Below are positions 1 to 12,484 of a stretch of 13,212 bases of DNA, piece by piece. The stretch lies in UHGV virus genome UHGV-0125291, one strand, 5' to 3'. Source of the stretch: a virus. Position 1 is the stretch's first letter; every line of letters starts with the position of its first letter. The notes under the pieces are model-generated. The model was not told the origin of the DNA. It saw only the letters and a program-made list of their open reading frames with translations, and did no database searches. The translations under genes and the position numbers were made by a program.

Positions 1-1
1 T

Positions 2-541
2 GAGCGTCGAAATAAGGGGCGGTCCAGGCCAAAAACCAAAAAGGATCCATTCTTATCGCTTGCGCCGGTAAAAGAAATTTCTCCACATGCGAAGGCACTT
101 GCAGCACTGGCAAAGAACCCAGACCTGCGCGACGGAAATTGCGAGCACTTCGAGCAGGTTTTCATTTTTGATTACTTCGAACGCAAGCACCCTGACATCT
201 ATGAGCTGTTGCATGCAACGCCTAACGGAGGGAAACGTTCAAAAGCAACCGCCGGGAAAATGAAGGCTGAAGGGCAGAAAAAAGGTTATCCGGACATGAG
301 TCTCGATAAAGCATGCGGTATTTATCACGGCATGCGAATTGAGCTTAAAGAACCAAATGGTAAAGCCCCGACGAAAGAGCAGATCGCCTGGATGCGCAGG
401 CTTAGAGAGGAAGGTTACTACGTCGTTCTTGCGTATGGTGCAGAACAAGCGATAACCGCCATCCTGGAATACATAAGCCTTAAAAAGGGTGAGGCTATTG
501 AGCATGTATTGAACGGCGACAAGTGGTTGTATGCTGCTTAA
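2..541 (+). CDS. VRR-NUC-like nuclease domain protein, 5' partial (frame open to the window edge)
   Basis: The reading frame is open from position 2 with no in-frame ATG upstream; the only in-window start is TTG at 209, which lacks a convincing SD. The C-terminal part (GYPDMSL...GMRIELKEPNGKAPTKEQIAWMRRLREEGYYVVLAYG) fits a PD-(D/E)xK / VRR-NUC pattern (PD...ELK). The family call is pattern recognition, not a search. Confidence 0.55.
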   Translation, partial: ERRNKGRSRPKTKKDPFLSLAPVKEISPHAKALAALAKNPDLRDGNCEHFEQVFIFDYFERKHPDIYELLHATPNGGKRSKATAGKMKAEGQKKGYPDMSLDKACGIYHGMRIELKEPNGKAPTKEQIAWMRRLREEGYYVVLAYGAEQAITAILEYISLKKGEAIEHVLNGDKWLYAA

Positions 542-607
542 AATAATAAATTAATTAGTGCATATGTGCTCTTTGATATAGCGCACATTAACATCGGGAG
601 AATAATC

Positions 608-763
608 GTGTCATTCAAGGCTAATTATGAATCGCTGGCATCGATCATGCCGCGTAATGAACAGGAAGCAGATGCTGTAGTGGACCCGGTAATCGCTGAA
701 ATGAATGCTCGCCTGGAGGCTGAATTTGCAGCTGAGAATGAACATACCACCCAGGGCGACTAG
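608..763 (+). CDS. small acidic hypothetical protein (about 51 aa)
   Basis: GTG at 608 lies 7 nt after GGGAG (595-599); the ORF track gives 566..763 from an upstream start without an RBS. The 3' end overlaps the next gene and contains its SD. Confidence 0.3.
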   Translation: MSFKANYESLASIMPRNEQEADAVVDPVIAEMNARLEAEFAAENEHTTQGD

Positions 764-1367
764 GACTGTTTTTTGTGTCGGTAGCGGTCCGTCACTCACT
801 CGTGAGGACTGTGCTGCTATAGAAAAAACTGGCTGTTCAATCATCGCGGTTAACAATTCCTGGCAGATGTTCGATGACATTTATGCCTTATACGCCGGTG
901 ATTTGTCATGGTGGAAGCAATACGGATCCACCATACCGGGAGGGAGATTCCGCAAAGTGACAGCCAACCTGGCGGCGGCGAAATCATTTTCGTTGGAGTA
1001 CAGGCGATATTGTGGACCGGCGGAAGGGGTAAATAGCGGCGCGCAGGCTATCAGTCTGGCTGCTGAATCAGGGGCTGAAGTAGTGGTATTAGTCGGCTAT
1101 GACTGTTCTCTGCAAAACGGCCTTCATTGGCATGGCGCGCGCCCTCAAGCACTACGGAATCCAACGCAGGTGTCTATTTCAAAATGGCAACAGCAGTTCC
1201 TGGATACCCGCAAAAAACACGCAGATTTACATATTTTGAATGCAAGTAGGAGCAGTGCAATTCAATGTTTCCCAAGAATAAATTTAGAGGCAGTGATCGC
1301 GTTATTATCGTCGGCAGTGGCCCAAGCGCCGCAAACTTTGTTGCGCCGCGCGGAGTGCCGATTATAG
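726..1367 (+). CDS. hypothetical protein with N-terminal GxGPS motif (VGSGPS...IIAVN...VLVGYD), paralog A
   Basis: ORF track 705..1367. The preferred start is TTG 726, 6 nt after GGAGG (715-719); ATG 705 and ATG 738 are alternatives. It shares motif order and spacing with the next gene. A possible DUF115/MptE-like Rossmann-fold assignment is weak. Confidence 0.6.
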   Translation: MQLRMNIPPRATRTVFCVGSGPSLTREDCAAIEKTGCSIIAVNNSWQMFDDIYALYAGDLSWWKQYGSTIPGGRFRKVTANLAAAKSFSLEYRRYCGPAEGVNSGAQAISLAAESGAEVVVLVGYDCSLQNGLHWHGARPQALRNPTQVSISKWQQQFLDTRKKHADLHILNASRSSAIQCFPRINLEAVIALLSSAVAQAPQTLLRRAECRL

Positions 1368-1891
1368 CGGTCAATGGGGCCATCGACTGGCTTAACCGCG
1401 CTTCTTATTTTTTCACCCTTGATCCATCGCCAGACAATATGCGGCGCGTTGGTCGTGGCCGCCGTCGCCGTGGTGTTTGTTATTGCATGGCGCTACCCGA
1501 TGTTAAAGAACGTGAGGTCAGAGACGGCGTTCTGTGCTTCCGTCGTGTGGCTGAGCGCGGCACGGAGCCAAAAAATACGAATTCTCCCGAGTGGTGGGCG
1601 TGGCGCTGGTCCGCACATTTCGGACTTTGCGAAGATGAGAATGAAATTGCCAGCGGCAATAGTGCATATGGTGCTCTGAACCTGGCTTTCCATATCGGAT
1701 TCAAACATGTAGCCCTGGTGGGCGTTGACGCTACGCAAGAACCACGCGTTCATTCCGGCGGCACGCCAAAAAATCTAAGTCACCTGCCTTTGTTATTCCA
1801 GTCTGCGCGTGAACAGATTGACGTTGTTTCATGCGGGAAAATGGGAGGTATTCCGCAGATGACTCTTAAAGAATGGCTGAAGAATACATGA
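1265..1891 (+). CDS. hypothetical protein with N-terminal GxGPS motif (IVGSGPS...IIAVN...LVGVD), paralog B
   Basis: ATG 1265 is preceded by AGGAG (1248-1252). It is the only in-frame start before the conserved motif, and it forces a 103-nt out-of-frame overlap with paralog A. The stop TGA 1889-1891 overlaps the ATG of the next gene. Confidence 0.65.
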
Positions 1892-2565
1892 TGGCACCAA
1901 CAATTTATCACCGTATCGACGGTACCAAATACAGGAATATCTGGGTTGTTGGTGATCTGCATGGTTGCTACACCAGACTGATGTCCGAACTCCATCGTGT
2001 GGATTTTGACCCTGCGCAGGATTTACTGATATCGGTCGGCGACCTTATCGATCGCGGCACCGAAAATGTTAAATGCTTGGAGCTATTGCAGATGCCATGG
2101 TTCAGAGCGGTTATGGGCAACCATGAGCGGCTGATGATTGATGCGTTAAGTCCTGATGGCAACGTGAATAATTGGCTAATGAATGGCGGTCAATGGTTCT
2201 TCATGCTGGACGCTGATCAGGAAATATTAGCCAGGGCGCTGGTGGAGTTGGTAAGACGACTGCCCTATATCATTGAGTTGAACACCGGGCAAGAAACTAT
2301 CGTTATAGCCCATGCCGACTATCCGGATAATGAATACCAATTCGGTAAGGAGGTGCCGCTTTTCAACGTTGTCTGGGCGCGCGAGCGTATCAGTGATTCG
2401 ATGGATGATATTGGTGGCGAAATTTCGGGCGCAGATCGTTTTATCTTTGGTCACACTCCGGTGAAAAGCCCGAAGACATTCTGGAATCAGCAGTATATCG
2501 ACACTGGTGCCGTATTTTGCGGAAACCTGACATTGATGAAAGTGAAAGGTGATGGTGCAGCATGA
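1888..2565 (+). CDS. Ser/Thr protein phosphatase, lambda PP (NinI / ORF221) family metallophosphatase
   Basis: Metallophosphatase motifs GDLHGC, GDLIDRG and GNHE are present, and the protein is collinear with lambda phosphatase as recalled. The start at ATG 1888 overlaps the upstream stop (ATGA); ATG 1873 and ATG 1891 are alternatives. P1 carries an equivalent gene (ppp) by memory, so the symbol is left blank. Confidence 0.9.
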
Positions 2566-3263
2566 AGATTGCTTTAGTTTTTCGCTCTGGTGGTGACTAT
2601 AACGCTTCCGATGTGCAGTGGCTGGTTAATCAACTGCCAAAAGGCTATGAAATTATTTGCCTGACAGACCTGAAGCGTTTACATGTACCTGGCGTCAAAG
2701 TTGTCCCATTGATCAACCAGTGGCAAAAGTGCCGTGGCTGGTGGGCGAAAATCGAGTTGTTCCGACCGGATATAACCGATGATCTGTTCTATCTGGATTT
2801 GGACACGGTTATTGCCGGTGATATACGCCCAATCCTTGAGAATCCACCAACCAGCTTCACCATGCTTAGGGATTTTTACCATCCACAATATCGTGGCAGC
2901 GGTGCCCTGTGGATACCAAATAGTGTAAAAGCGCATATCTGGAGTTCATTCTGGCAAGATCCGGAAGGTTGGATTTCTCGTTGTGTCACTACTGAGTGCT
3001 GGGGTGATCAGGGGTTCTTACGGAAGGTTATGGGCGATGATACACCAGCATTTCAGGATCTGTATCCAGGATGGTTTGTAAGTTACAAGGCCGATGTTGT
3101 GGAACCTGGTTCAAAATATGCGAGCGCGCGTTACTCCAGGGGGAATGGGGCATTACCAAAGGACTGCCGAATAATCTTTTTCCACGGCAAACCGCGACCT
3201 CGCGAAGTGTCAGAGGATTGGCTTCCCCTTATCAGCTCGTTTTTTGAGCGAGAATCAGAATAA
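2562..3263 (+). CDS. hypothetical protein with DxD motif ([12 protein letters not shown]), possible GT-A-like glycosyltransferase
   Basis: ATG 2562 overlaps the phosphatase stop (ATGA at 2562-2565), with AAGGTGA upstream. The N-terminal beta-alpha start ([12 protein letters not shown]) followed by DLD resembles nucleotide-sugar transferases. The function is inference only. Confidence 0.6.
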
Positions 3264-3264
3264 T

Positions 3265-3281
3265 ATTGCTCTAATAATTCC
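3265..3281 (+). promoter_or_regulatory. P1 C1-repressor operator-like site (ATTGCTCTAATAATTCC), overlapping a possible -35 (TTGCTC)
   Basis: 14 of 17 positions match the asymmetric P1 C1 operator consensus ATTGCTCTAATAAATTT (recalled from literature). It sits 2 nt after the stop of the upstream gene and is followed at a fixed 19-nt offset by ATTTTTAAAAC, as is the copy at 5406. Confidence 0.5.
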
Positions 3282-3289
3282 ATATTTTT

Positions 3290-3319
3290 AAAACGTGATG
3301 TACACTCATCACGTTTTTT
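3290..3319 (+). terminator. Rho-independent terminator
   Basis: An 11-bp stem AAAACGTGATG / CATCACGTTTT with a 6-nt loop (3301-3306) is followed by a T-run ending at 3319. Confidence 0.6.
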
Positions 3320-3330
3320 ATTAGAGCAAT
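3314..3330 (-). promoter_or_regulatory. second C1 operator-like site, inverted orientation
   Basis: The reverse complement of 3314-3330 is ATTGCTCTAATAAAAAA, a 14/17 match to the consensus. With the site at 3265-3281 it forms a 13-bp inverted repeat enclosing the terminator hairpin. Confidence 0.45.
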
Positions 3331-3344
3331 CTACAAGGTGCACT

Positions 3345-3563
3345 ATGTGGCCATTCCGACGGAAATATCACTACTGGCTGATCGCCTTTGTTACGCCGAC
3401 CGGCGGTATCAGGCATGTCATCACCAGGTATCGCAACAAGAGACTCACCTTAGCCAGAATTTTACAGGCTGCCATAGGTGAGGGACTGGATACAAATTGC
3501 GTAGTCCTTCCTCCTTCATACTTAGGAAAAATGACCGAAGCACAAGCTAATACGGAACTTTGA
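3345..3563 (+). CDS. small hypothetical protein (72 aa)
   Basis: ATG 3345 lies 4 nt after AAGGTG (3335-3340). Its stop TGA 3561-3563 is 1 nt from the next ATG, suggesting coupling. No recognisable motifs. Confidence 0.4.
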   Translation: MWPFRRKYHYWLIAFVTPTGGIRHVITRYRNKRLTLARILQAAIGEGLDTNCVVLPPSYLGKMTEAQANTEL

Positions 3564-3564
3564 A

Positions 3565-4827
3565 ATGAGCACTTCAGCACAAAACCAATCAATCGAAAAT
3601 GTATCTATCCCTGACGTCCTGAATGCCGGTATCCCGGCCATTATCCAGAACATCCGGGCCGCGCAACGCCGCGTTAGTTGTGATGACCTCACAGCGCGTT
3701 TTTTTGATAATGCGGTTCAGTCAGCGGAGATGCTTCACGCACAGCTTATTGATGTTTATAACGCAGAAGCTGATAGCCATAACTCCCTGGTAGATGCAGC
3801 TGAAAATATGCAGTTGGATCTCGGTCTGAAGGGTAAAGAAATTGAAGAGCTTCAGCTGGAAATTGAACATTTGAAACGCCAGCAACAGGACGCGATCGAC
3901 GATGCGACGCATGACGCCAACCAGCGTGCTGATAATGCCGAACGTATAAGCATTGAGCTGGAAACAAAACTCAATGAAATGACCGCGATGGTTGAACTGC
4001 GGAACTCACAGATTTCAACGCTAAAATCTCAATATAAAGAGATCATGAAACTTGATCCTTTTAACCTTGAGAAACGCTATAACAAAGCTAAAAGCGAGCG
4101 ACAGGAACTGCGTAAGCAGGTCGCCGACCTTAACCAACAGCTCAAAAAAACTATTAAAGATGCAAGCGAAGCGCGCGTGGCATTTGCTAATAAAAAAGCA
4201 GAGGTTACCGCGCTGGTTAATGAGAATGCCAAATTTGCGACGCTCAAGAAGGAAATGTATGGCATTACTGAGCGCCGTTTCCCTGCAAGCAAACTTCATC
4301 CGACGTTAGGGCAAATCTCCTTCTTCCCGCGCCTCCTGGCTTATGGGATCTCATCGCCTAAAGAGTTCAATAACGAGCGTCCTTATATCGTTTCTAAGCT
4401 GGACTTTGCTTATCAGTTCTGCTGCGACATGGGCTATGCCATTGATATCCGAATCAACGAATGGTTGATGCCAAACTTCCAGCCGTTGGCAATTTTCCGC
4501 GAGTTCCAGCCGGAAGGTTGGGTAGAGTTCTTCCATGAATTGATCTGTAAAGAGATGGAAAGCCGCCGCCCGGAATTGGTCCGTCGAGTTGAGTGGGCGC
4601 AAGAGGTTATGTTGGCAGATGCAGAGCTGCCGTTCGAACCGGAATTCATTGATGATCTGGCAACTAAAGGGCTGCATACCCTGTTTGATGTGGTTACCCG
4701 CCGTCATGAGCAGTTGGTTGTCGAATTGGGTTTAGAGGAAACTGCGGCAAGAAGACTTCTCGATGTTTGCTATGCACGTAGCGATGCATGGGAAAAAGAG
4801 AACGGCGGCACTATTTACGTTCGCTGA
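3565..4827 (+). CDS. coiled-coil protein of unknown function (420 aa) with a C-terminal globular domain
   Basis: Long ORF. Residues about 80-230 are a heptad-rich charged segment (EIEELQLEIEHLKRQQQ..., ELRKQVADLNQQLKK); the C-terminal roughly 190 aa is aromatic and Cys-containing. No catalytic motif is recognised. Confidence 0.8.
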   Translation: MSTSAQNQSIENVSIPDVLNAGIPAIIQNIRAAQRRVSCDDLTARFFDNAVQSAEMLHAQLIDVYNAEADSHNSLVDAAENMQLDLGLKGKEIEELQLEIEHLKRQQQDAIDDATHDANQRADNAERISIELETKLNEMTAMVELRNSQISTLKSQYKEIMKLDPFNLEKRYNKAKSERQELRKQVADLNQQLKKTIKDASEARVAFANKKAEVTALVNENAKFATLKKEMYGITERRFPASKLHPTLGQISFFPRLLAYGISSPKEFNNERPYIVSKLDFAYQFCCDMGYAIDIRINEWLMPNFQPLAIFREFQPEGWVEFFHELICKEMESRRPELVRRVEWAQEVMLADAELPFEPEFIDDLATKGLHTLFDVVTRRHEQLVVELGLEETAARRLLDVCYARSDAWEKENGGTIYVR

Positions 4828-4847
4828 TAGTTACAGTGTCACTTTTA

Positions 4848-4880
4848 ATGCTGGTGGAGTGCGCCCACCAGCATTTTTTT
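4848..4880 (+). terminator. Rho-independent terminator
   Basis: A 10-bp stem ATGCTGGTGG / CCACCAGCAT with a 7-nt loop is followed by a T7 run (4874-4880), 20 nt after the stop of the 420-aa gene. Confidence 0.7.
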
Positions 4881-4899
4881 CGTCCAATGAGGAGGGCAT

Positions 4900-5406
4900 T
4901 TGAGTATTTTCAATAAACACGCACACCAGGAACGTCCGTACATCGTCATAGTAGATATTGATGGGACGATATCAGAGGCAACGGAAGACAGGCTGCATTT
5001 ACTTCCACCACCTGGCAAAGGTGCATTAACAGAGCACTGGAACGAGTTTAACCTTGCCTGTGACACTGATGCTCCCATCACTCCAGTTATTGATATGGTG
5101 CGCCAGTTGTCCGGCATTTACACCCTCTGGTTTGTAACCGGGCGCTGTGAGATCGCAAGGGATAAAACACGAGCCTGGTTGCGTAAGCACGTAACAAATG
5201 GGGCTGAGCCTTTGCTATCTATGCGTCCTGCCACCGATGACAGAAATGACGGCCCAGCAAAGATTGATCTCCTTAAGAAAATTGGTCTAAGCAAAATTGC
5301 GTTCGCGCTGGAAGATAAGATTGAAGTGGCGCGTGTTTTCAGGAGGCACGGCGTGCTTACGTTAATGGTCAGGGAGTATGAAAACGCGCTTCTCCATCAA
5401 CAATAA
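4900..5406 (+). CDS. HAD-superfamily phosphatase-like protein
   Basis: TTG start at 4900 is 4 nt after AGGAGG (4890-4895). HAD motif I DxDGT is present (VIVDIDGTI), with a downstream Thr (FVTGR), Lys and LEDK consistent with motifs II-IV. Confidence 0.75.
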   Translation: MSIFNKHAHQERPYIVIVDIDGTISEATEDRLHLLPPPGKGALTEHWNEFNLACDTDAPITPVIDMVRQLSGIYTLWFVTGRCEIARDKTRAWLRKHVTNGAEPLLSMRPATDDRNDGPAKIDLLKKIGLSKIAFALEDKIEVARVFRRHGVLTLMVREYENALLHQQ

Positions 5407-5422
5407 TTGCTCTAATAAATCA
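5406..5422 (+). promoter_or_regulatory. third C1 operator-like site (ATTGCTCTAATAAATCA), overlapping a possible -35
   Basis: 15 of 17 positions match the C1 operator consensus. It starts at the last base of the HAD gene stop codon and is followed at the same 19-nt offset by ATTTTTAAAAC (5425-5435). Confidence 0.5.
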
Positions 5423-5455
5423 TGATTTTTAAAACAGAGAAAGTGAAAATAAAAA

Positions 5456-5476
5456 CATGCCGCAAGGCGCGGCATG
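5456..5476 (-). terminator. GC-rich hairpin acting as an intrinsic terminator in the minus orientation
   Basis: An 8-bp stem CATGCCGC / GCGGCATG with a 5-nt loop. On the minus strand it is followed by UUUUUAUUUU (complement of 5441-5455); on the plus strand there is no U-tract, so there it would be a 5'-UTR structure. Confidence 0.4.
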
Positions 5477-5504
5477 TATCCAATCAATCACAGGAGCTGA
5501 AGAT

Positions 5505-5591
5505 ATGAACACGGCATTCAAAATCATTATGACCGCGATCTATTTCTGGCTGTTCTTTATCACTTTTGGCAGCATTGTCGCGCATGGGTAA
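5505..5591 (+). CDS. small hydrophobic peptide (28 aa, MNTAFKIIMTAIYFWLFFITFGSIVAHG), one predicted TM helix
   Basis: ATG 5505 is 8 nt after AGGAG (5492-5496) and the stop is TAA 5589-5591. It is below the 60-aa cutoff of the ORF track. It lies downstream of the operator/promoter module at 5406-5435. Confidence 0.35.
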   Translation: MNTAFKIIMTAIYFWLFFITFGSIVAHG

Positions 5592-5626
5592 GGGGAGTAT
5601 ATTAGCCATTTGGAACCCCACGGTCT

Positions 5627-5670: not shown

Positions 5671-8600
5671 CTATATTTTTCCGCCTACGCCTTTAAACTT
5701 CTCAATAAACGAGACGATTTTCTGGAAAACTGCCTGTTTTTTCGTTTTATATTGCGGATTTAAAGGACTGAGTCTGGGCAGTGTCTCGTTTAATTCCGTG
5801 CCATTTTCGGTGGCGTATTCGCGTTTTAAAGACGTGCGAATATAGCGTTTCGCCGCCTCTTCATTGAGATTTTCTTCTTTTATCAATGCTTCTGCTTCAC
5901 GTTGCTGTTCGCGTTGAGCAAACGTAAAGAATGCGTCAATGATGCTGGCTTTGTCCGGTAAATCATCCAGGTTCGTTTGCTGAATAAAATCGACCACCAG
6001 GCCCTCTTTAGCACGGTTCCCCAGGCTTGAACGAATTAAGCGTTTGACCTCTTCGATCATTTCGCCCTTGCCTTTATTTTGTCTGTTGTGTTCGAAAATC
6101 AGTCCAAGGATATAATCCAGGTTTATTTCCTGAGACTTCAGCAAATCGACCTCAAAAACTACGTCATCCCAGTCAGTGGTTGATTTCTCTTTTTTCTCAG
6201 CTTCTTTCTCACGGCGCTGCCAGTCGCGAATATCGTTATAGGCAGAACGATAATCCTGAATCTTGCGATCAGCAGGGAGACGAATTGTTTGCAATTCAGC
6301 GAACTTTTCATCATCCACATAATGTTCTGCTTTGAATTTTTCTACCGCAACAGGATCGCTAAGATCGATTTGTTGCAGGGCTTTCAGCGTGGCAAATTCA
6401 TCATAGTTTTGCAGGATGTTCTCGGCACGCAGGTATTCACCAAACAGTTTAACGAAGTCTTTCTTCTCTTTTTCACTTTCAATACTGGTAGGGTCAGGGA
6501 ACCGTTGTTCCAGTTCTGAAACTACTGTCATGAAGCCGCGTTTAGCTTCACCAGTGGCAGCATCAGTAAAGCCTTCCATATACTCTGCATAACTCTTTTC
6601 TAAAACCACATTTTTGGTGTTTTTGTCACCAAACAGCGTTATGGCATCAATAGTTGAGCGTTCCAGATCCCGGAAAGTGACGATATTACCGAAGGTTTTA
6701 GTTGCATCATAAATACGGTTGGTGCGGGAAAATGCCTGCATCAGGCCGTGAAAACGCAAGTTTTTATCGACGAATAGCGTGTTCAATGTTGGAGCATCGA
6801 AGCCGGTTAAAAACATCCCCACGACAATTAACAGATCGATATCCTGATTTTTAACCCGTTGGGCTAAATCGCGATAGTAGTTCTGAAAACCGTTACCGTC
6901 GGTGCTGAAGTTAGTTTTAAAATAGCTGTTATACTCACGAATTGCAGCGTCAAGAAACTCTTTAGCACTGCTGTCCATTGCGCTGGTATCAAAAGTTTCA
7001 TCGGAAATTTCACCAATGGCATTTTGTTCTTCATTGGCGGCAAAGGAGAAGATTGTCGCAACACGCAGCGGTTTATAGGTAGCCGATTTATTAGCTGCTT
7101 CCTCTTGTAACCGTTTAAACGTCGCATAATAGGCTTTCGCGGCATCCACGCTGCTCACTGCCAACATAGCATTAAAACCTTTTGAGCCAGGGAAGGTACG
7201 GTGAGTTTTCTGGCGGAAATTATTCAGAATATATTGCGTGATTTCCTGAATACGCATGGGATGAAGAAACGCCTGCTGATTTTCAGCCGCACTTAGTTTT
7301 TTCTCGTCAGTTTCTGTCTCTAAAGACTTAAACTGTGGCCGCACATCGTTGTAGTCCACCTTGAATTTGAGCACTTTTTCGTCACGAATCGCATCGGTAA
7401 TTACATACGAATGCAATTCACGACCAAATACGCTGGCGGTTGTTTCTGAGCCTAAGGCGTTTTCCGGGAAAATAGGGGTGCCGGTAAAACCAAACTGATA
7501 ATAGCGTTTGAATTTCTTCTTCAGGTTTTTCTGCGCTTCTCCAAACTGGCTGCGGTGGCATTCATCAAATATAAACACCACTTGCTGATTGTATACAGGC
7601 AGGTCGCTTTCTGCTTTCATCAGGTTATTGAGTTTCTGAATAGTAGTGACGATAATTTTGTTATCGTCCTTATCCAGATTTCGTTTAAGGCCTGCGGTAT
7701 TTTCCGAGCCGTTGACGCTGTCTGGCGAAAAACGCTGATATTCCTTCATGGTCTGGTAATCGAGGTCTTTCCTGTCGACCACAAAGAAGACTTTATCAAT
7801 AAAGTCCAGCTCTGTTGCCAGACGCGCGGCTTTAAAGCTGGTGAGGGTTTTACCAGAACCGGTAGTGTGCCAGATATACCCACCGCTTTCCGGTTTTGAC
7901 CAGTTCTTCGCTGTAAAGGAACTCTTAATTTTCCACAGAATGCGCTCGGTGGCGGCAATCTGGTACGGTCGCATCACCAGTAGCGTCTGACTACTGTCAA
8001 AAACGCTGTAGTTCACCAGAACATTCAGCAGAGTATGTTTCTGGAAAAAGGTAGCGGTAAAGTCTTTGAGGTCTTTAATCAGCGTGTTGTCTGATTTCGC
8101 CCAGTTCATGGTGAAGTCAAAACTGTTTTTATCGCGCTTTGTCGTGTTGGCAAAATAACGGGTATCGGTGCCGTTAGAAATGACAAACAGTTGCAGATAC
8201 TTAAACAGGGAATTTTCGCTGTTAAAACTCTCTTTACTGTAACGATGTATCTGGTTGAAAGCCTCACGAATCGCCACCCCGCGTTTTTTTAGTTCGATTT
8301 GCACCAGCGGTAAACCATTAACCAGGATCGTGACGTCATAACGGTTAGCATGAGAACCCGTCTGTTCAAACTGCTGGATAATCTGCACCTTATTGCGCAT
8401 GAGATTCTTTTTATCTATCAAATAGATGTTCTCAAGTCGCCCGTCGTCAAAAATAAAGTCGCAGATATAGTCGATATGGATTTTACGGGTCTTATCCAGA
8501 ATGCCATCGCTGGGGTTGTCCAGATACTGCTCCGTGAAGCGCCGCCACTCGCTGTCATTAAACATCACACCATTGAGGCTCTGAAGCTGTTCCCGAACAT

Positions 8601-8787
8601 TAGACAGCATTGCCGACTGTGATTTTACGGAAATAAATTCATAACCCTGATTCCGCAGGTCCTGAATCAGTTCACGTTCCAGGTCCGATTCGCTCTGGTA
8701 GCTGTCGCTTGTTTGCTCAGCTTTGATGTACTTATCAAGGACGATAAAGTTATTGGATTCAGCAATGGTGTGTGTTTGATGAGTCAT
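5671..8787 (-). CDS. hsdR: Type I restriction enzyme R subunit (HsdR), EcoR124 (Type IC) family
   Basis: 1038 aa. Walker A ([11 protein letters not shown]) and a DEAD-box-like motif (FDECH) are present. The N-terminus [24 protein letters not shown] matches EcoR124I HsdR as recalled. RBS AAGGA lies 5 nt before the ATG. Confidence 0.95.
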
Positions 8788-8908
8788 AGCGCATCCTTTG
8801 TGCCGCCTGGCAAGGGCCGGAAAGGCGTTAAGAGTGACTTCCGGCGCGTAAAAAATAGTCTATATACTGACCGGATGTTAAGGAGGCCCGGTCGGTAGCA
8901 ATGGTCAA

Positions 8909-10143
<1,235 letters not shown>

Positions 10144-10147
<4 letters not shown>

Positions 10148-11706
10148 GATTGCGCCTCGTCACCTTCAATCTTTGCCACAATTGCATCAATATCTTTACG
10201 CAACTGGTCGATTTTGCTGACCGTGGTTTTCAGCTCAGCATTCAGCTCACCGATATCGATAATTTCGCGGTTATCTTTCGCTTCCACATAGCTGCTCACC
10301 GACAGGTTATAGTCATTCGCGACAACAGTCTCAAACGTGACAGATTTTGCCAGATGAGCAACATCTTCCTTGCTGGCAAATACCTGCATAATCTGTTCGA
10401 TATGGGCATCGGTCAGGATATTGTTGTTGGTCTCTTTTTTGAACAGTTCGCTGGCGTCAATAAACTGAACGTTGGTATCCGTTTTATGTTTAGACAGAAC
10501 CAGAATGTTTACGGCAATGGTGGTGCCAAAGAACAGGTTCGGTGCCAGTGAAATCACGGTTTCGACATAGTTATTGTCGACCAGATACTGACGGATTTTC
10601 TGCTCCGCGCCGCCACGGTAAAAAATACCCGGGAAGCAGACAATCGCAGCACGACCTTTGGCCGAAAGATAGTTCAGCGCATGTAATACAAACGCAAAGT
10701 CAGCTTTGGATTTGGGGGCCAGAACGCCAGCCGGGGCAAAACGCTCATCGTTAATCAGCGTCGGGTCATCGCTGCCAATCCATTTCACCGAATACGGCGG
10801 GTTAGAAACGATGGCATCAAACGGTTTTTCATCTCTGAAGTGCGGCTCAGTCAGCGTATTGCCCAGCTTGATATCAAACTTGTCGTAGTTGATGTTGTGC
10901 AAAAACATGTTCATACGCGCCAGGTTATAGGTCGTATGGTTGATTTCCTGACCAAAAAAACCTTCTTCGATGATATGGTTATCAAACTGTTTTTTCGCCT
11001 GCAACAACAGTGAGCCGGAACCCGCTGCCGGGTCGTAGATTTTGTTAACGCTGGTCTGCCCGTGCATAGCCAGTTGTGCAATCAGCTTGGAGACGTGCTG
11101 CGGTGTAAAGAACTCGCCGCCTGACTTACCAGCATTCGCCGCATAGTTAGAAATCAGGAACTCATAGGCATCACCGAACAGGTCAATCTGATGTTCGTTG
11201 AAGTCACCAAGTTTTAACCCTTCAACCCCTTTCAGAACCGCAGCCAGGCGGGCATTTTTATCTTTAACGGTGTTACCCAGGCGGTTACTGGTGGTATCGA
11301 AATCAGCAAACAAACCTTTGATGTCAGCTTCTGAAGGGTAACCGTAAGCAGAACTTTCGATAGCAACGAAGATGCTGTTTAAATCTGCATTCAGTCTGTC
11401 ATTGGTATTTGCTTTCGCAGCTACGTTGCAGAAAAGCTGACTGGGGTAGATGAAGTAGCCTTTAGTTTTGATGGCATCGTCTTTAATGTCATCAGTAATT
11501 ACGCTGTCATCCAGTTTCGCATAACAGATACTGTCATCACCGGCTTCAATATAACTGGAAAAATTTTCGCTGATAAAACGGTAGAAAAGCGCGCCCAGAA
11601 CGTATTGCTTAAAATCCCATCCATCGACCGAACCCCTGACATCGTTAGCAATTTGCCAGATTTGACGATGAAGCTCTGCACGTTGTTGAATACTTGTCAT
11701 TTTCAT
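10144..11706 (-). CDS. hsdM: Type I R-M DNA methyltransferase subunit (HsdM), N6-adenine
   Basis: 520 aa. The AdoMet motif ([10 protein letters not shown]) and the catalytic NPPY motif (SNPPYS) are present. A second Met 2 codons in (ATG 11698-11700) is an alternative start. Confidence 0.95.
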
Positions 11707-11873: not shown

Positions 11874-11882
11874 GAGGTGTTT

Positions 11883-12104
11883 GTGCAATCCATTAACTTC
11901 CGTACCGCGCGTGGCAACCTTTCTGAAGTGCTCAACAATGTTGAAGCCGGGGAAGAGGTTGAAATCACCCGCAGAGGCCGTGAGCCAGCAGTAATTGTCA
12001 GCAAGGCTACTTTCGAAGCCTACAAAAAAGCGGCGCTGGATGCTGAATTTGCATCCCTGTTTGACACCCTGGACTCCACCAACAAGGAACTGGTTAACCG
12101 ATAA
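11883..12104 (+). CDS. phd: Phd antitoxin (prevent-host-death), P1 type
   Basis: A GTG start at 11883 gives [73 protein letters not shown], 73 aa, matching P1 Phd as recalled. The ORF track starts 2 codons upstream at 11877. The stop TAA overlaps the doc ATG (TAATG). Confidence 0.9.
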
Positions 12105-12484
12105 TGAGGCATATATCACCGGAAGAACTTATTGCGCTTCATGATGCGAATATAAGCCGCTACGGCGGCCTGCCGGGAATGTCAGATCCGGGTAGGGCAG
12201 AGGCCATTATCGGGAGAGTTCAGGCCAGAGTTGCCTACGAAGAGATCACCGACCTTTTCGAAGTCTCCGCCACCTACCTGGTGGCTACAGCGAGAGGGCA
12301 TATATTCAATGATGCCAATAAGCGTACCGCGCTAAACAGTGCGCTGTTATTTCTACGCCGTAACGGGGTGCAGGTATTTGATTCACCTGAACTGGCAGAC
12401 CTTACCGTAGGGGCTGCGACCGGAGAGATATCTGTATCTTCTGTCGCCGACACGTTACGTAGATTGTATGGTTCTGCGGAGTAG
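12104..12484 (+). CDS. doc: Doc toxin (death-on-curing), Fic-fold kinase
   Basis: 126 aa with the Fic/Doc motif HIFNDANKR. It is translationally coupled to phd and the sequence matches P1 Doc as recalled. Confidence 0.9.

Follow-up and report, generated by a model that had tools for sequence, protein, structure and literature searches.

Judged by its sequence, the open reading frame at positions 1888-2565 is the phage P1 gene ppp, and the window (the whole stretch of 13,212 nucleotides analysed, from UHGV virus genome UHGV-0125291) is a P1-like phage-plasmid. The best explanation, to which we give a probability of about 0.9, is that this P1 ppp encodes a lambda-type phosphatase, is part of a C1-controlled operon and represents an accessory cassette. 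Over window positions 1-5595, the DNA is 98.2-98.5% identical to RCS47 and phage P1; this region is collinear with P1 and has no indels relative to it. Within ppp, 26 nucleotides differ from P1; 20 of these differences are silent and 6 change an amino acid, none of them at a catalytic residue. Protein alignments showed 97% identity of Ppp with its P1 counterpart, 83% with that of phage D6 and 65% with the lambda phosphatase. Besides the near-identical sequence, the position between pmgP (upstream) and pmgQ (downstream) is conserved, as are the overlaps and the C1 operators, as found for a P1 ppp orthologue. The same gene (protein AAQ14060 in P1) is present in P7, RCS47, SJ46, phi456 and many P1-like plasmids. 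Downstream of pap, the window carries a type IC hsd cassette where P1 has a stretch led by pmgT, pmgU and pmgV, but ppp is untouched by this difference. The P1 GenBank record AF234172 labels ppp as serine/threonine protein phosphatase "by homology", 64% identical to phage lambda; its name and annotation go back to that record, and it is an ordinary lambda-type phosphatase. Its identity is settled by hundreds of almost identical loci and by the crystal structure of a protein with 65% identity. The first-pass annotation had read the gene correctly from its sequence but had missed that P1 has this gene under the name ppp, with an annotation and with experiments showing it to be dispensable.

The reading frame is open without a break from an ATG at 1873 to the TGA at 2563-2565, and ATG codons at 1888 and 1891 are also in frame, so that all three are candidate starts. 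The P1 annotation uses the ATG at 1873, which is 15 nucleotides upstream of 1888 and gives a protein of 230 amino acids and an overlap of 19 nucleotides with pmgP. The ATG at 1888, which forms the ATGA overlap, gives 225 amino acids and is the candidate nearest to the N-terminus of the lambda enzyme; depending on the start codon, the N-terminus of Ppp is 3-9 residues longer than that of lambda. Ppp matched Pfam Metallophos (E=8e-16), PHROG 246 'NinI-like serine-threonine phosphatase' (E=1.6e-111) and the structure of the lambda phosphatase (NinI/orf221; PDB 1G5B, E=8.9e-95), the latter with residues 6-224 of the query aligned to residues 3-221 of the chain. Hence, PHROG 246 and 1G5B give full-length homology to the single-domain lambda-type enzyme of about 220 amino acids. 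The protein-serine/threonine phosphatases PrpA and PrpB of E. coli (PphA/PphB) belong to the same subfamily and the corresponding NCBIfam models PRK11439 and PRK09968 matched over the full length (E=3e-82 and E=4e-71), but Ppp is not an orthologue of PrpA or PrpB, because the scores of 275.8 and 239.1 bits are below the equivalog cut-offs of 326 and 332. Symmetrical Ap4A hydrolase (ApaH) was rejected as well, with 68.5 bits versus a cut-off of 176 and only residues 18-84, comprising the N-terminal motifs, aligned. The phosphatase module of bacterial Pnkp was matched weakly (TIGR04075, E=8e-11; PDB 4J6O from Clostridium thermocellum, E=3.5e-5). Pnkp and ApaH have the binuclear metallophosphoesterase core and its motifs in common with Ppp, but these hits (E=1e-5 to 1e-10) are weak or cover only part of the protein, they fall far short of the family cut-offs, and Ppp has neither kinase nor ligase modules. 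The features of ppp and its surroundings are listed in Table 1.

Table 1 Features of ppp and of the operon that contains it. Positions refer to the window; predicted elements transferred from P1 are marked as annotation transfer.
Feature	Position	Strand	Basis and remarks
PpmgN, predicted sigma-70 promoter	-35 TTGAAC 509-514; -10 TATGCT 530-535	+	P1 annotation transfer; hexamers identical to P1
Oppp (former Op83), C1 repressor operator	548-564	-	P1 annotation transfer; 1 of 17 bases differs from P1
pmgN, first gene of the operon, small protein	608-763	+	P1 annotation; PHROG 2350
pmgO ('paralog A'), MptE-like/sialyltransferase-like, GSGPS motif	705-1367	+	P1 annotation; PHROG 4603 'alpha-2,3-sialyltransferase', E=1.7e-72; Pfam PF01973 sub-threshold
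pmgP ('paralog B')	1265-1891 (TGA stop 1889-1891)	+	P1 annotation; 81% identical to JK004 gene_99
ppp, lambda/NinI-type binuclear metallophosphatase	1873-2565	+	Profile, structure, P1-annotation and alignment matches
Motif I, GDxHG (GDLHG 1951-1965)	1954-1962 (D 1954-1956, H 1960-1962)	+	Invariant D28, H30; metal ligands D20, H22 in lambda
Motif II, GDxxDRG (GDLIDRG)	2041-2055 (D 2041-2043, D 2050-2052, R 2053-2055)	+	Invariant D57, D60, R61; lambda bridging Asp D49, D52 and phosphate-binding R53
Motif III, GNHE (2116-2127)	2119-2127 (N 2119-2121, H 2122-2124)	+	Invariant N83, H84, E85; lambda N75 (metal ligand), H76 (phosphate contact/general acid)
Distal His, metal ligand	2311-2313	+	Invariant H147; lambda H139
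Second Arg, phosphate binding	2380-2382	+	Invariant R170; lambda R162
Distal His, metal ligand	2452-2454	+	Invariant H194; lambda H186
Shine-Dalgarno sequence of pmgQ, AGGTGAT, within the 3' end of ppp	2547-2553	+	-10.0 kcal/mol with the 3' end of 16S rRNA
pmgQ ('DxD gene'), glycosyltransferase-like, last gene of the operon	2562-3263	+	PHROG 1962 'glycosyltransferase', E=4.9e-128
Operon end, 11-bp hairpin (3290-3317) followed by a U tract	3265-3330	+	RNA fold -26.9 kcal/mol, z = -10.9
OpmgRa and OpmgRb, C1 operators	3265-3281 and 3314-3330	OpmgRb: -	Inverted, enclose the hairpin; identical to P1

Ten catalytic and ligand residues were invariant in the alignment with the P1, D6 and lambda proteins. 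Motifs I-III, the distal histidines and the second arginine, which characterise the NinI subfamily, are all present, and across the domain of about 220 amino acids Ppp has all the same metal ligands and phosphate-binding residues as the lambda phosphatase. The first-pass claim of a lambda-type Ser/Thr phosphatase with unambiguous motifs is thus borne out by the 65% identity and the retained catalytic residues; substitution of metal ligands, which that annotation had itself named as evidence against its reading, was looked for in the alignment and all ligands were found intact. As a member of the lambda phosphatase (NinI) subfamily, Ppp would be a phosphoesterase with a single domain and two metals (Mn2+-type); by homology, a metal-bridged water would attack a phosphate gripped by the two arginines and the histidine of the GNHE motif, and the enzyme would remove phosphate from phospho-Ser/Thr/Tyr proteins in vitro, as the lambda enzyme does. 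From the 65% identity and the intact active site, we infer a Mn2+/Ni2+-dependent phosphomonoesterase activity on phosphoproteins and p-nitrophenyl phosphate (pNPP).

The gene ppp is the fourth of five genes in one transcription unit, pmgN-pmgO-pmgP-ppp-pmgQ, which is headed by PpmgN and Oppp (509-564); both PpmgN and the control by C1 are predictions in the P1 annotation. A late promoter further upstream, LPpmgL, could also read into the operon. The hairpin after pmgQ was missed by a consensus terminator scan but is clearly seen on folding, and it probably acts as a terminator; a search of the window for structured RNA gave no Rfam match at gathering thresholds. Since the promoter is C1-repressed and the hairpin is flanked by C1 operators, the operon is expected to stay off in the lysogen and to be expressed in lytic growth.

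Both ATGA junctions that the first-pass annotation had described are present: at 1888-1891 the ATG of ppp (1888-1890) overlaps the TGA of pmgP, and at 2562-2565 the ATG of pmgQ (2562-2564) overlaps the TGA of ppp, with the one qualification that the P1 annotation places the start of ppp further upstream. Neither junction varied among the related IMG/VR loci of full length (75 of 75). They are real yet not unusual, because such short overlaps are the norm in the window (pmgN/pmgO, pmgO/pmgP, hsdM/hsdS and phd/doc). Shine-Dalgarno pairing at the three candidate starts of ppp amounted to -2.4 to -3.6 kcal/mol versus a background median of -3.6 kcal/mol, whereas the energy of the pmgQ Shine-Dalgarno sequence ranks among the top 5% for positions 30-5600 of the window. 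Therefore, of the translationally coupled chain of three genes that had been proposed, the first link holds better than the second: coupling of ppp to pmgP is plausible, given the geometry and the lack of a separate ribosome-binding site for ppp, and ribosomes ending on pmgP probably restart at the overlapping ATG and translate ppp, but the case for coupling of pmgQ to ppp is weaker because pmgQ has a strong Shine-Dalgarno sequence of its own.

An exact 24-nucleotide motif of ppp was found in 77 of 80 P1-like loci. Full-length alignment was obtained for 75 of the 80, all with an intact reading frame and intact catalytic residues; one P1-like locus (L046) has a truncated ppp. In a set of 75 sequences, the window and 74 loci related to it, codon position 3 holds 49 of the 80 polymorphic sites, and the alignment indicates that purifying selection acts on ppp in P1-like elements. 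When P1 ppp was knocked down by CRISPRi, plating was not reduced (PMC10695390); P1 forms plaques in the laboratory without a need for ppp and the gene is non-essential, as is ninI in lambda. The strong conservation argues that ppp gives some benefit which plaque assays miss. That this benefit is a counter-defence role invisible on E. coli K-12, which would account for the near-universal retention of ppp, and that the natural substrate of Ppp/NinI is not a housekeeping phosphoprotein, we consider unlikely.

Outside the P1-like elements with ppp, the gene and its neighbours are found apart from each other. D6 carries ppp among unrelated lambdoid nin-like genes and its 87% DNA identity is confined to window positions 1930-2561. 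Lambda has ninI in its nin region, immediately ahead of Q, whereas ppp of the window lies between glycosyltransferase-like genes of the P1 operon. Conversely, the P1-like Cronobacter phage JK004 has homologues of PmgN, PmgO, PmgP, PmgQ and Pap (48-81% identity), but Ppp was absent when looked for across the JK004 genome. An intergenic mini-ORF of JK004 was considered as a remnant of a deleted ppp, but outside the ATGA and GTGA ends its DNA alignment was too weak to tell a deletion in JK004 from an insertion in the lineage of P1. In Citrobacter phage phiNP, a sialyltransferase-like and a PmgQ-like gene overlap with no phosphatase beside them, and in phage Chlobot a PmgQ-like gene stands by itself. 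This distribution is consistent with ppp being an accessory, exchangeable cassette that would not be a working partner of its glycosyltransferase-like neighbours.

The substrate may lie elsewhere than the name implies. The lambda phosphatase also hydrolyses bis-pNPP and nucleoside 2',3'-cyclic phosphates, a 2',3'-cyclic phosphodiesterase chemistry that it has in common with the C. thermocellum Pnkp, and, according to the same study, the lambda enzyme has no known physiological substrate and might also act on nucleic acids (PMC2190708); the label 'protein' phosphatase for Ppp may, by analogy, be wrong. Pap (4900-5406), encoded 2.3 kb downstream, has a T4 PNKP-type 3'-phosphatase domain (Pfam HAD_PNKP, E=2e-11; PHROG 415 'polynucleotide kinase'), and together with the weaker matches of Ppp to Pnkp and ApaH this would fit a joint action of Ppp and Pap in RNA end-healing or signal degradation. 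Such a role is distinctly improbable: the matches to Pnkp and ApaH mainly reflect the common metallophosphoesterase core, there is neither an RNA ligase nor a polynucleotide kinase domain in the window, Pap is encoded in a different transcription unit, and JK004 has Pap without Ppp. Moreover, Ppp retains lambda Arg53, the equivalent of the arginine which is essential for monoesterase activity in C. thermocellum Pnkp, which fits a phosphomonoesterase.

Very improbable, too, is that Ppp counters protein phosphorylation, either by reversing the phosphorylation of EF-Tu by Doc or by removing marks of host Ser/Thr-kinase defence or stress systems in lytic growth. The chemistry would be suitable, since enzymes of the lambda phosphatase family dephosphorylate phosphoproteins in vitro (according to background cited in PMC2190708) and Doc phosphorylates Thr382 of EF-Tu (PMC5851678); ppp occurs together with phd-doc in P1-like phages and D6, and a function under selection is suggested by how strongly P1-like elements conserve ppp. 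However, ppp is part of a C1-repressed lytic operon, whereas phd-doc is a separate unit that is needed in the lysogen, and Doc already has a dedicated antidote, Phd. NinI-like phosphatases turned up in 1387 phage records, among them those of lambdoid, T5-like, Vibrio and Listeria phages, but Doc homologues in 54, with high-identity Doc limited to the P1 and D6 lineage; the co-occurrence and co-regulation across genomes that would characterise a Doc partner were not observed. The spacing of 9.5 kb between ppp and doc, with which the first-pass annotation had introduced an interplay that it called conceivable but entirely speculative, is secondary, having been made by the inserted type IC restriction-modification cassette, which classical P1 lacks. 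Since regulation, co-occurrence and gene order gave no support, the link to Doc was rejected. As for host defence, literature searches gave no report of a NinI-like phosphatase as defence or anti-defence factor, no PADLOC defence model matched Ppp, PmgO, PmgP, PmgQ or Pap, and the ppp knock-down showed no plating defect on E. coli K-12, though K-12 may lack the relevant defence.

That Ppp works in a glycosylation pathway with its neighbours, for example by dephosphorylating a sugar-phosphate or lipid-linked intermediate with coupling enforcing the stoichiometry, is barely credible: ppp is flanked by the sialyltransferase-like PmgO and PmgP and the glycosyltransferase-like PmgQ genes with invariant 4-nucleotide overlaps on either side, but this functional unit, and with it the unity of three genes implied in the first-pass annotation, is largely refuted by JK004, which retains pmgO, pmgP and pmgQ without ppp, by phiNP and Chlobot, and by D6 and the lambdoid phages, which have the phosphatase without pmg neighbours.

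In sum, Ppp adds little as a discovery: the structure of its nearest relative, the lambda phosphatase that is sold commercially, has been solved, and the gene was dispensable in a genome-wide CRISPRi screen. Across phages, ppp is strongly conserved in P1-like elements, cleanly absent from JK004 and swapped with D6 and lambdoid phages as a cassette of one gene, a pattern that points to a self-contained accessory function and not to a partnership with its neighbours or Doc. The comparative data thereby sharpen, slightly, the old general question of the physiological substrate of lambda/NinI-type phage phosphatases.

The first 5600 nt of the window were covered to at least 80% by 19 phage records at 97.7-98.5% identity (megablast, phage genomes), among them Escherichia phage P1 (AF234172, AF234173, NC_005856), P7, RCS47, SJ46 and phi456. 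The alignment with P1 was collinear over the first 5595 nt, with 102 substitutions and no indels, and many plasmids of E. coli and E. fergusonii hold the entire 13.2-kb window at ~98% identity. Since both P1-type phages and plasmids are matched at ~98%, the window is part of a P1-like phage-plasmid. Gene names were transferred from the P1 GenBank annotation and, because a gene is named there at the place of the phosphatase ORF described in the first-pass annotation, this ORF is P1 ppp; the record describes it as a serine/threonine protein phosphatase by homology, with 64% identity to phage lambda. At the start of the window, the C-terminal part of PmgM (209-541) gave a sub-threshold match to a VRR-NUC nuclease domain (Pfam PF08774, E=1.4e-4), in agreement with the RefSeq label 'VRR-NUC domain-containing protein' in related phages.

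Genes of the window, with positions, strand where noted and source of the assignment
Gene	Position	Strand	Source
pmgM	partial at window start		P1 annotation
pmgN	608-763		P1 annotation
pmgO	705-1367		P1 annotation
pmgP	1265-1891		P1 annotation
ppp	1873-2565		P1 annotation
pmgQ	2562-3263		P1 annotation
pmgR	3345-3563		P1 annotation
pmgS	3565-4827		P1 annotation
pap	4900-5406		P1 annotation
hsdR	5671-8787	-	type I restriction-modification cassette
hsdS	8909-10147	-	type I restriction-modification cassette
hsdM	10144-11706	-	type I restriction-modification cassette
phd	11877-12104		
doc	12104-12484		

The ppp ORF is open from ATG 1873 through TGA 2563-2565, and ATG 1888 and ATG 1891 are also in frame. 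Its product matched Pfam Metallophos (E=8.2e-16), PHROG 246 'NinI-like serine-threonine phosphatase' (E=1.6e-111) and, nearly over the full length, the crystal-structure sequence of the lambda phosphatase NinI (PDB 1G5B, E=8.9e-95). In a four-way alignment, Ppp of the window was 97% identical to Ppp of P1, 83% to Ppp of phage D6 and 65% to the lambda phosphatase, and the lambda catalytic positions D20, H22, D49, D52, R53, N75, H76, H139, R162 and H186 were all invariant; numbered from ATG 1873, these are D28, H30, D57, D60, R61, N83, H84, H147, R170 and H194. The assignment to the lambda-type Ser/Thr phosphatases therefore holds and, since all catalytic positions are kept, closer alignment revealed none of the metal-ligand substitutions that had been named as a possible objection. 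Judged by its sequence, Ppp has every feature that defines PPP-type binuclear metallophosphatases of the lambda/NinI type as a subfamily, and it is orthologous to Ppp of P1. E. coli PrpA and PrpB are relatives but score 276 and 239 bits, under the NCBIfam equivalog cut-offs of 326 and 332, and the partial matches to ApaH and the bacterial Pnkp phosphatase module, far under the cut-off, reflect the common catalytic core.

The ATGA junctions at 1888-1891, spanning the pmgP stop, and at 2562-2565, spanning the pmgQ start, were both found in the window. The start of ppp is annotated in P1 at the ATG equivalent to 1873 and had been placed at 1888 in the first-pass annotation; the N-terminus of the lambda phosphatase aligns closest to 1888/1891, and the Met at 1888 is kept in P1 and D6, position 1891 being Ile in P1. 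Shine-Dalgarno pairing at the three candidate starts amounted to -2.4, -3.6 and -3.6 kcal/mol, none of which beats the background median of -3.6 kcal/mol (all positions of window 30-5600). The lack of a ribosome binding site better than background agrees with a coupled translation of ppp, in which ribosomes ending at the pmgP stop would restart at the overlapping ATG; this slightly favours 1888 as start. The Shine-Dalgarno sequence of pmgQ (AGGTGAT, 2547-2553) is strong (-10.0 kcal/mol), and this gene can therefore also initiate alone. Co-translation of three genes as one unit, as proposed before, is therefore reasonable, though unproven, for the pmgP/ppp junction but was an over-reading for ppp/pmgQ. 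Short gene overlaps are the norm in the window (pmgN/pmgO, pmgO/pmgP, hsdM/hsdS, phd/doc), and ppp of D6 also starts in an ATGA overlap, onto a wholly different upstream gene.

Upstream of pmgN, the P1 annotation holds a predicted sigma-70 promoter, PpmgN, and an operator of the lysogeny repressor C1, Oppp (former Op83), with the late promoter LPpmgL lying upstream of both; two further C1 operators, OpmgRa and OpmgRb, are directly 3' of pmgQ. Compared to P1, the promoter hexamers as well as OpmgRa and OpmgRb are identical in the window, and Oppp has a single difference in 17 bases. From this annotation, pmgN-pmgO-pmgP-ppp-pmgQ would form a single operon that is off in the lysogen and on in lytic development. 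OpmgRa and OpmgRb are the outer arms of a 13-bp inverted repeat (3265-3330) and folding revealed, inside this repeat, an 11-bp hairpin followed directly by a U tract (3290-3317; -26.9 kcal/mol, z=-10.9). Since the operator arms enclose hairpin and U tract, the repressor sites of the next operon (pmgR-pmgS) and a terminator-like structure occupy the same 66 nt.

Variation was analysed in 80 IMG/VR loci, retrieved via the PmgQ homologue. An exact 24-nt ppp motif was present in 77 of them, at a fixed distance upstream of pmgQ in all but one (L023, shifted 6 nt by an indel). The end of pmgP, the entire ppp and the start of pmgQ aligned gap-free and at full length in 75 loci; in each of these, the ppp ORF and the catalytic residues are intact and neither ATGA junction is altered, and the number of distinct Ppp variants is 33. 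Among 75 sequences (the window and 74 of the full-length loci), 49 of 80 variable sites in ppp are at third codon positions, and 41 codons vary synonymously only, compared to 29 with an amino-acid change. The 26 nt differences between ppp of the window and of P1 lead to only 6 amino-acid changes. We regard ppp as a real gene that is expressed as a protein and kept by purifying selection. In one P1-like contig (IMGVR_UViG_2609459856_000007), similarity starts only at window 2163 (contig ~3600), and the 5' 40% of ppp, with motifs I-III, has given way to the end of an unrelated 414-aa ORF; this truncation is due to a rearrangement.

The surroundings of ppp differ between phages. D6 (MF356679, 5947-6639) has 87% DNA identity to the window only across ppp (window 1930-2561), with unrelated, lambdoid-like flanks; the gene has small genes like those of the lambdoid nin region around it and a pdcB-like gene after it, and neither pmgO, pmgP nor pmgQ was found near it. 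Here, a single-gene cassette has clearly been exchanged. In lambdoid phages, the homologue ninI immediately precedes Q. Cronobacter phage JK004 encodes, in the same order as the window, homologues of PmgN (48% over 29 aa), PmgO (70%), PmgP (81%), PmgQ (75%) and Pap (72.5%), and tblastn revealed neither Ppp nor Doc in its entire genome; pmgP and pmgQ are only ~40 nt apart. Citrobacter phage phiNP has an overlapping pair of sialyltransferase-like and PmgQ-like genes without phosphatase and phage Chlobot a PmgQ-like gene alone. An embedding of ppp in a functional unit with its flanking genes was thus rejected, since D6 and lambdoid phages have the phosphatase without these neighbours and JK004, phiNP and Chlobot have neighbours without the phosphatase. 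From these arrangements, the conserved association is the PmgP-like and PmgQ-like pair, and ppp is an exchangeable single-gene cassette lying between them in the P1 lineage by happenstance.

In place of ppp, JK004 (MZ188976; locus positions 3957-4004) has a 15-codon ORF, MSPAYHTFALTGLAQ plus stop, which overlaps the pmgP stop by ATGA and, at its end, the GTG of pmgQ by GTGA, thus keeping the stop/start overlap chain unbroken. This ORF could have remained after a deletion of ppp, represent the ancestral state or be due to chance; at a length of 15 codons, an open frame is expected by chance at ~50%.

PmgO and PmgP are paralogous MptE-like/sialyltransferase-like proteins (PHROG 4603, 2111), whose ORFs (705-1891) share 103 nt, read in different frames, and PmgQ is glycosyltransferase-like (PHROG 1962); the three form a putative glycosylation module. 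The pair found in JK004 and phiNP lies in the latter (locus positions 3463-4648) between lysis and terminase genes, and the solitary Chlobot gene (4001-4720) beside integrase and tail-fibre genes. In P1, pmgO, pmgP and pmgQ were all non-essential in CRISPRi (PMC10695390). Pap, labelled 'acid phosphatase' in P1, matched the HAD-type 3'-phosphatase domain of polynucleotide kinase-phosphatase (Pfam PF25109, E=2e-11) and PHROG 415 'polynucleotide kinase' (E=1e-55) without having the kinase domain. This second phosphoesterase, 2.3 kb from ppp, is present in JK004, which is devoid of ppp.

An interplay of the phosphatase with the toxin Doc, also considered in the first-pass annotation, found no support. 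phd and doc are a unit of their own, separate from the ppp operon, and Phd-Doc acts in plasmid maintenance, i.e. in the lysogen, when C1 should repress the ppp operon. By tblastn, 1387 phage records contain NinI-like phosphatases, phages of Vibrio, Escherichia, Salmonella, Klebsiella and Listeria among them, compared to only 54 with Doc homologues, and high-identity Doc is confined to the P1 and D6 lineage. The spacing of 9.5 kb goes back to the insertion of a type I restriction-modification cassette, which is absent from classical P1 and present in phi456, vB_EcoM-673R5 and many plasmids. This complete type IC system lies between pap and phd-doc (5671-11706, - strand), where classical P1 has a stretch beginning with pmgT/pmgU/pmgV. 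HsdS matched the EcoR124II specificity subunit (PDB 7BST, E=4.5e-74). It contains a perfect 12-nt tandem repeat (9553-9592, 3.3 copies) coding three times for TAEL; in the EcoR124I/II family, the repeat copy number determines how long the spacer of the recognition site is. Just after pap, the P1 record notes homology to what lies downstream of the EcoDXXI and R124/3 hsd loci.

Thus, ppp is an already known gene and nothing unusual in a P1-type genome. Piya et al. 2023 (PMC10695390) used P1 ppp as known non-essential control, and genome-wide CRISPRi scored it non-essential; lambda ninI was non-essential after polarity on Q was complemented. A lambda two-hybrid map contains NinI-N and NinI-Q interactions of low confidence (PMC3224144). 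Literature searches gave no report that links a NinI-like phosphatase to defence or anti-defence, and PADLOC has no model matching Ppp. According to Keppetipola and Shuman 2007 (PMC2190708), the physiological substrates of the lambda phosphatase are unknown; it also cleaves bis-pNPP and nucleoside 2',3'-cyclic phosphates, in the related enzyme CthPnkp the equivalent of its Arg53 is essential for monoesterase activity, and the authors do not exclude an action on nucleic acids. What remains of interest is the in vivo role of lambda-type phage phosphatases, an old general question. The strong conservation in P1-like elements, the clean absence from JK004 and the cassette-like exchange with D6 and lambdoid phages suggest that ppp has a self-contained accessory role, whose benefit would not be visible on laboratory E. 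coli K-12.
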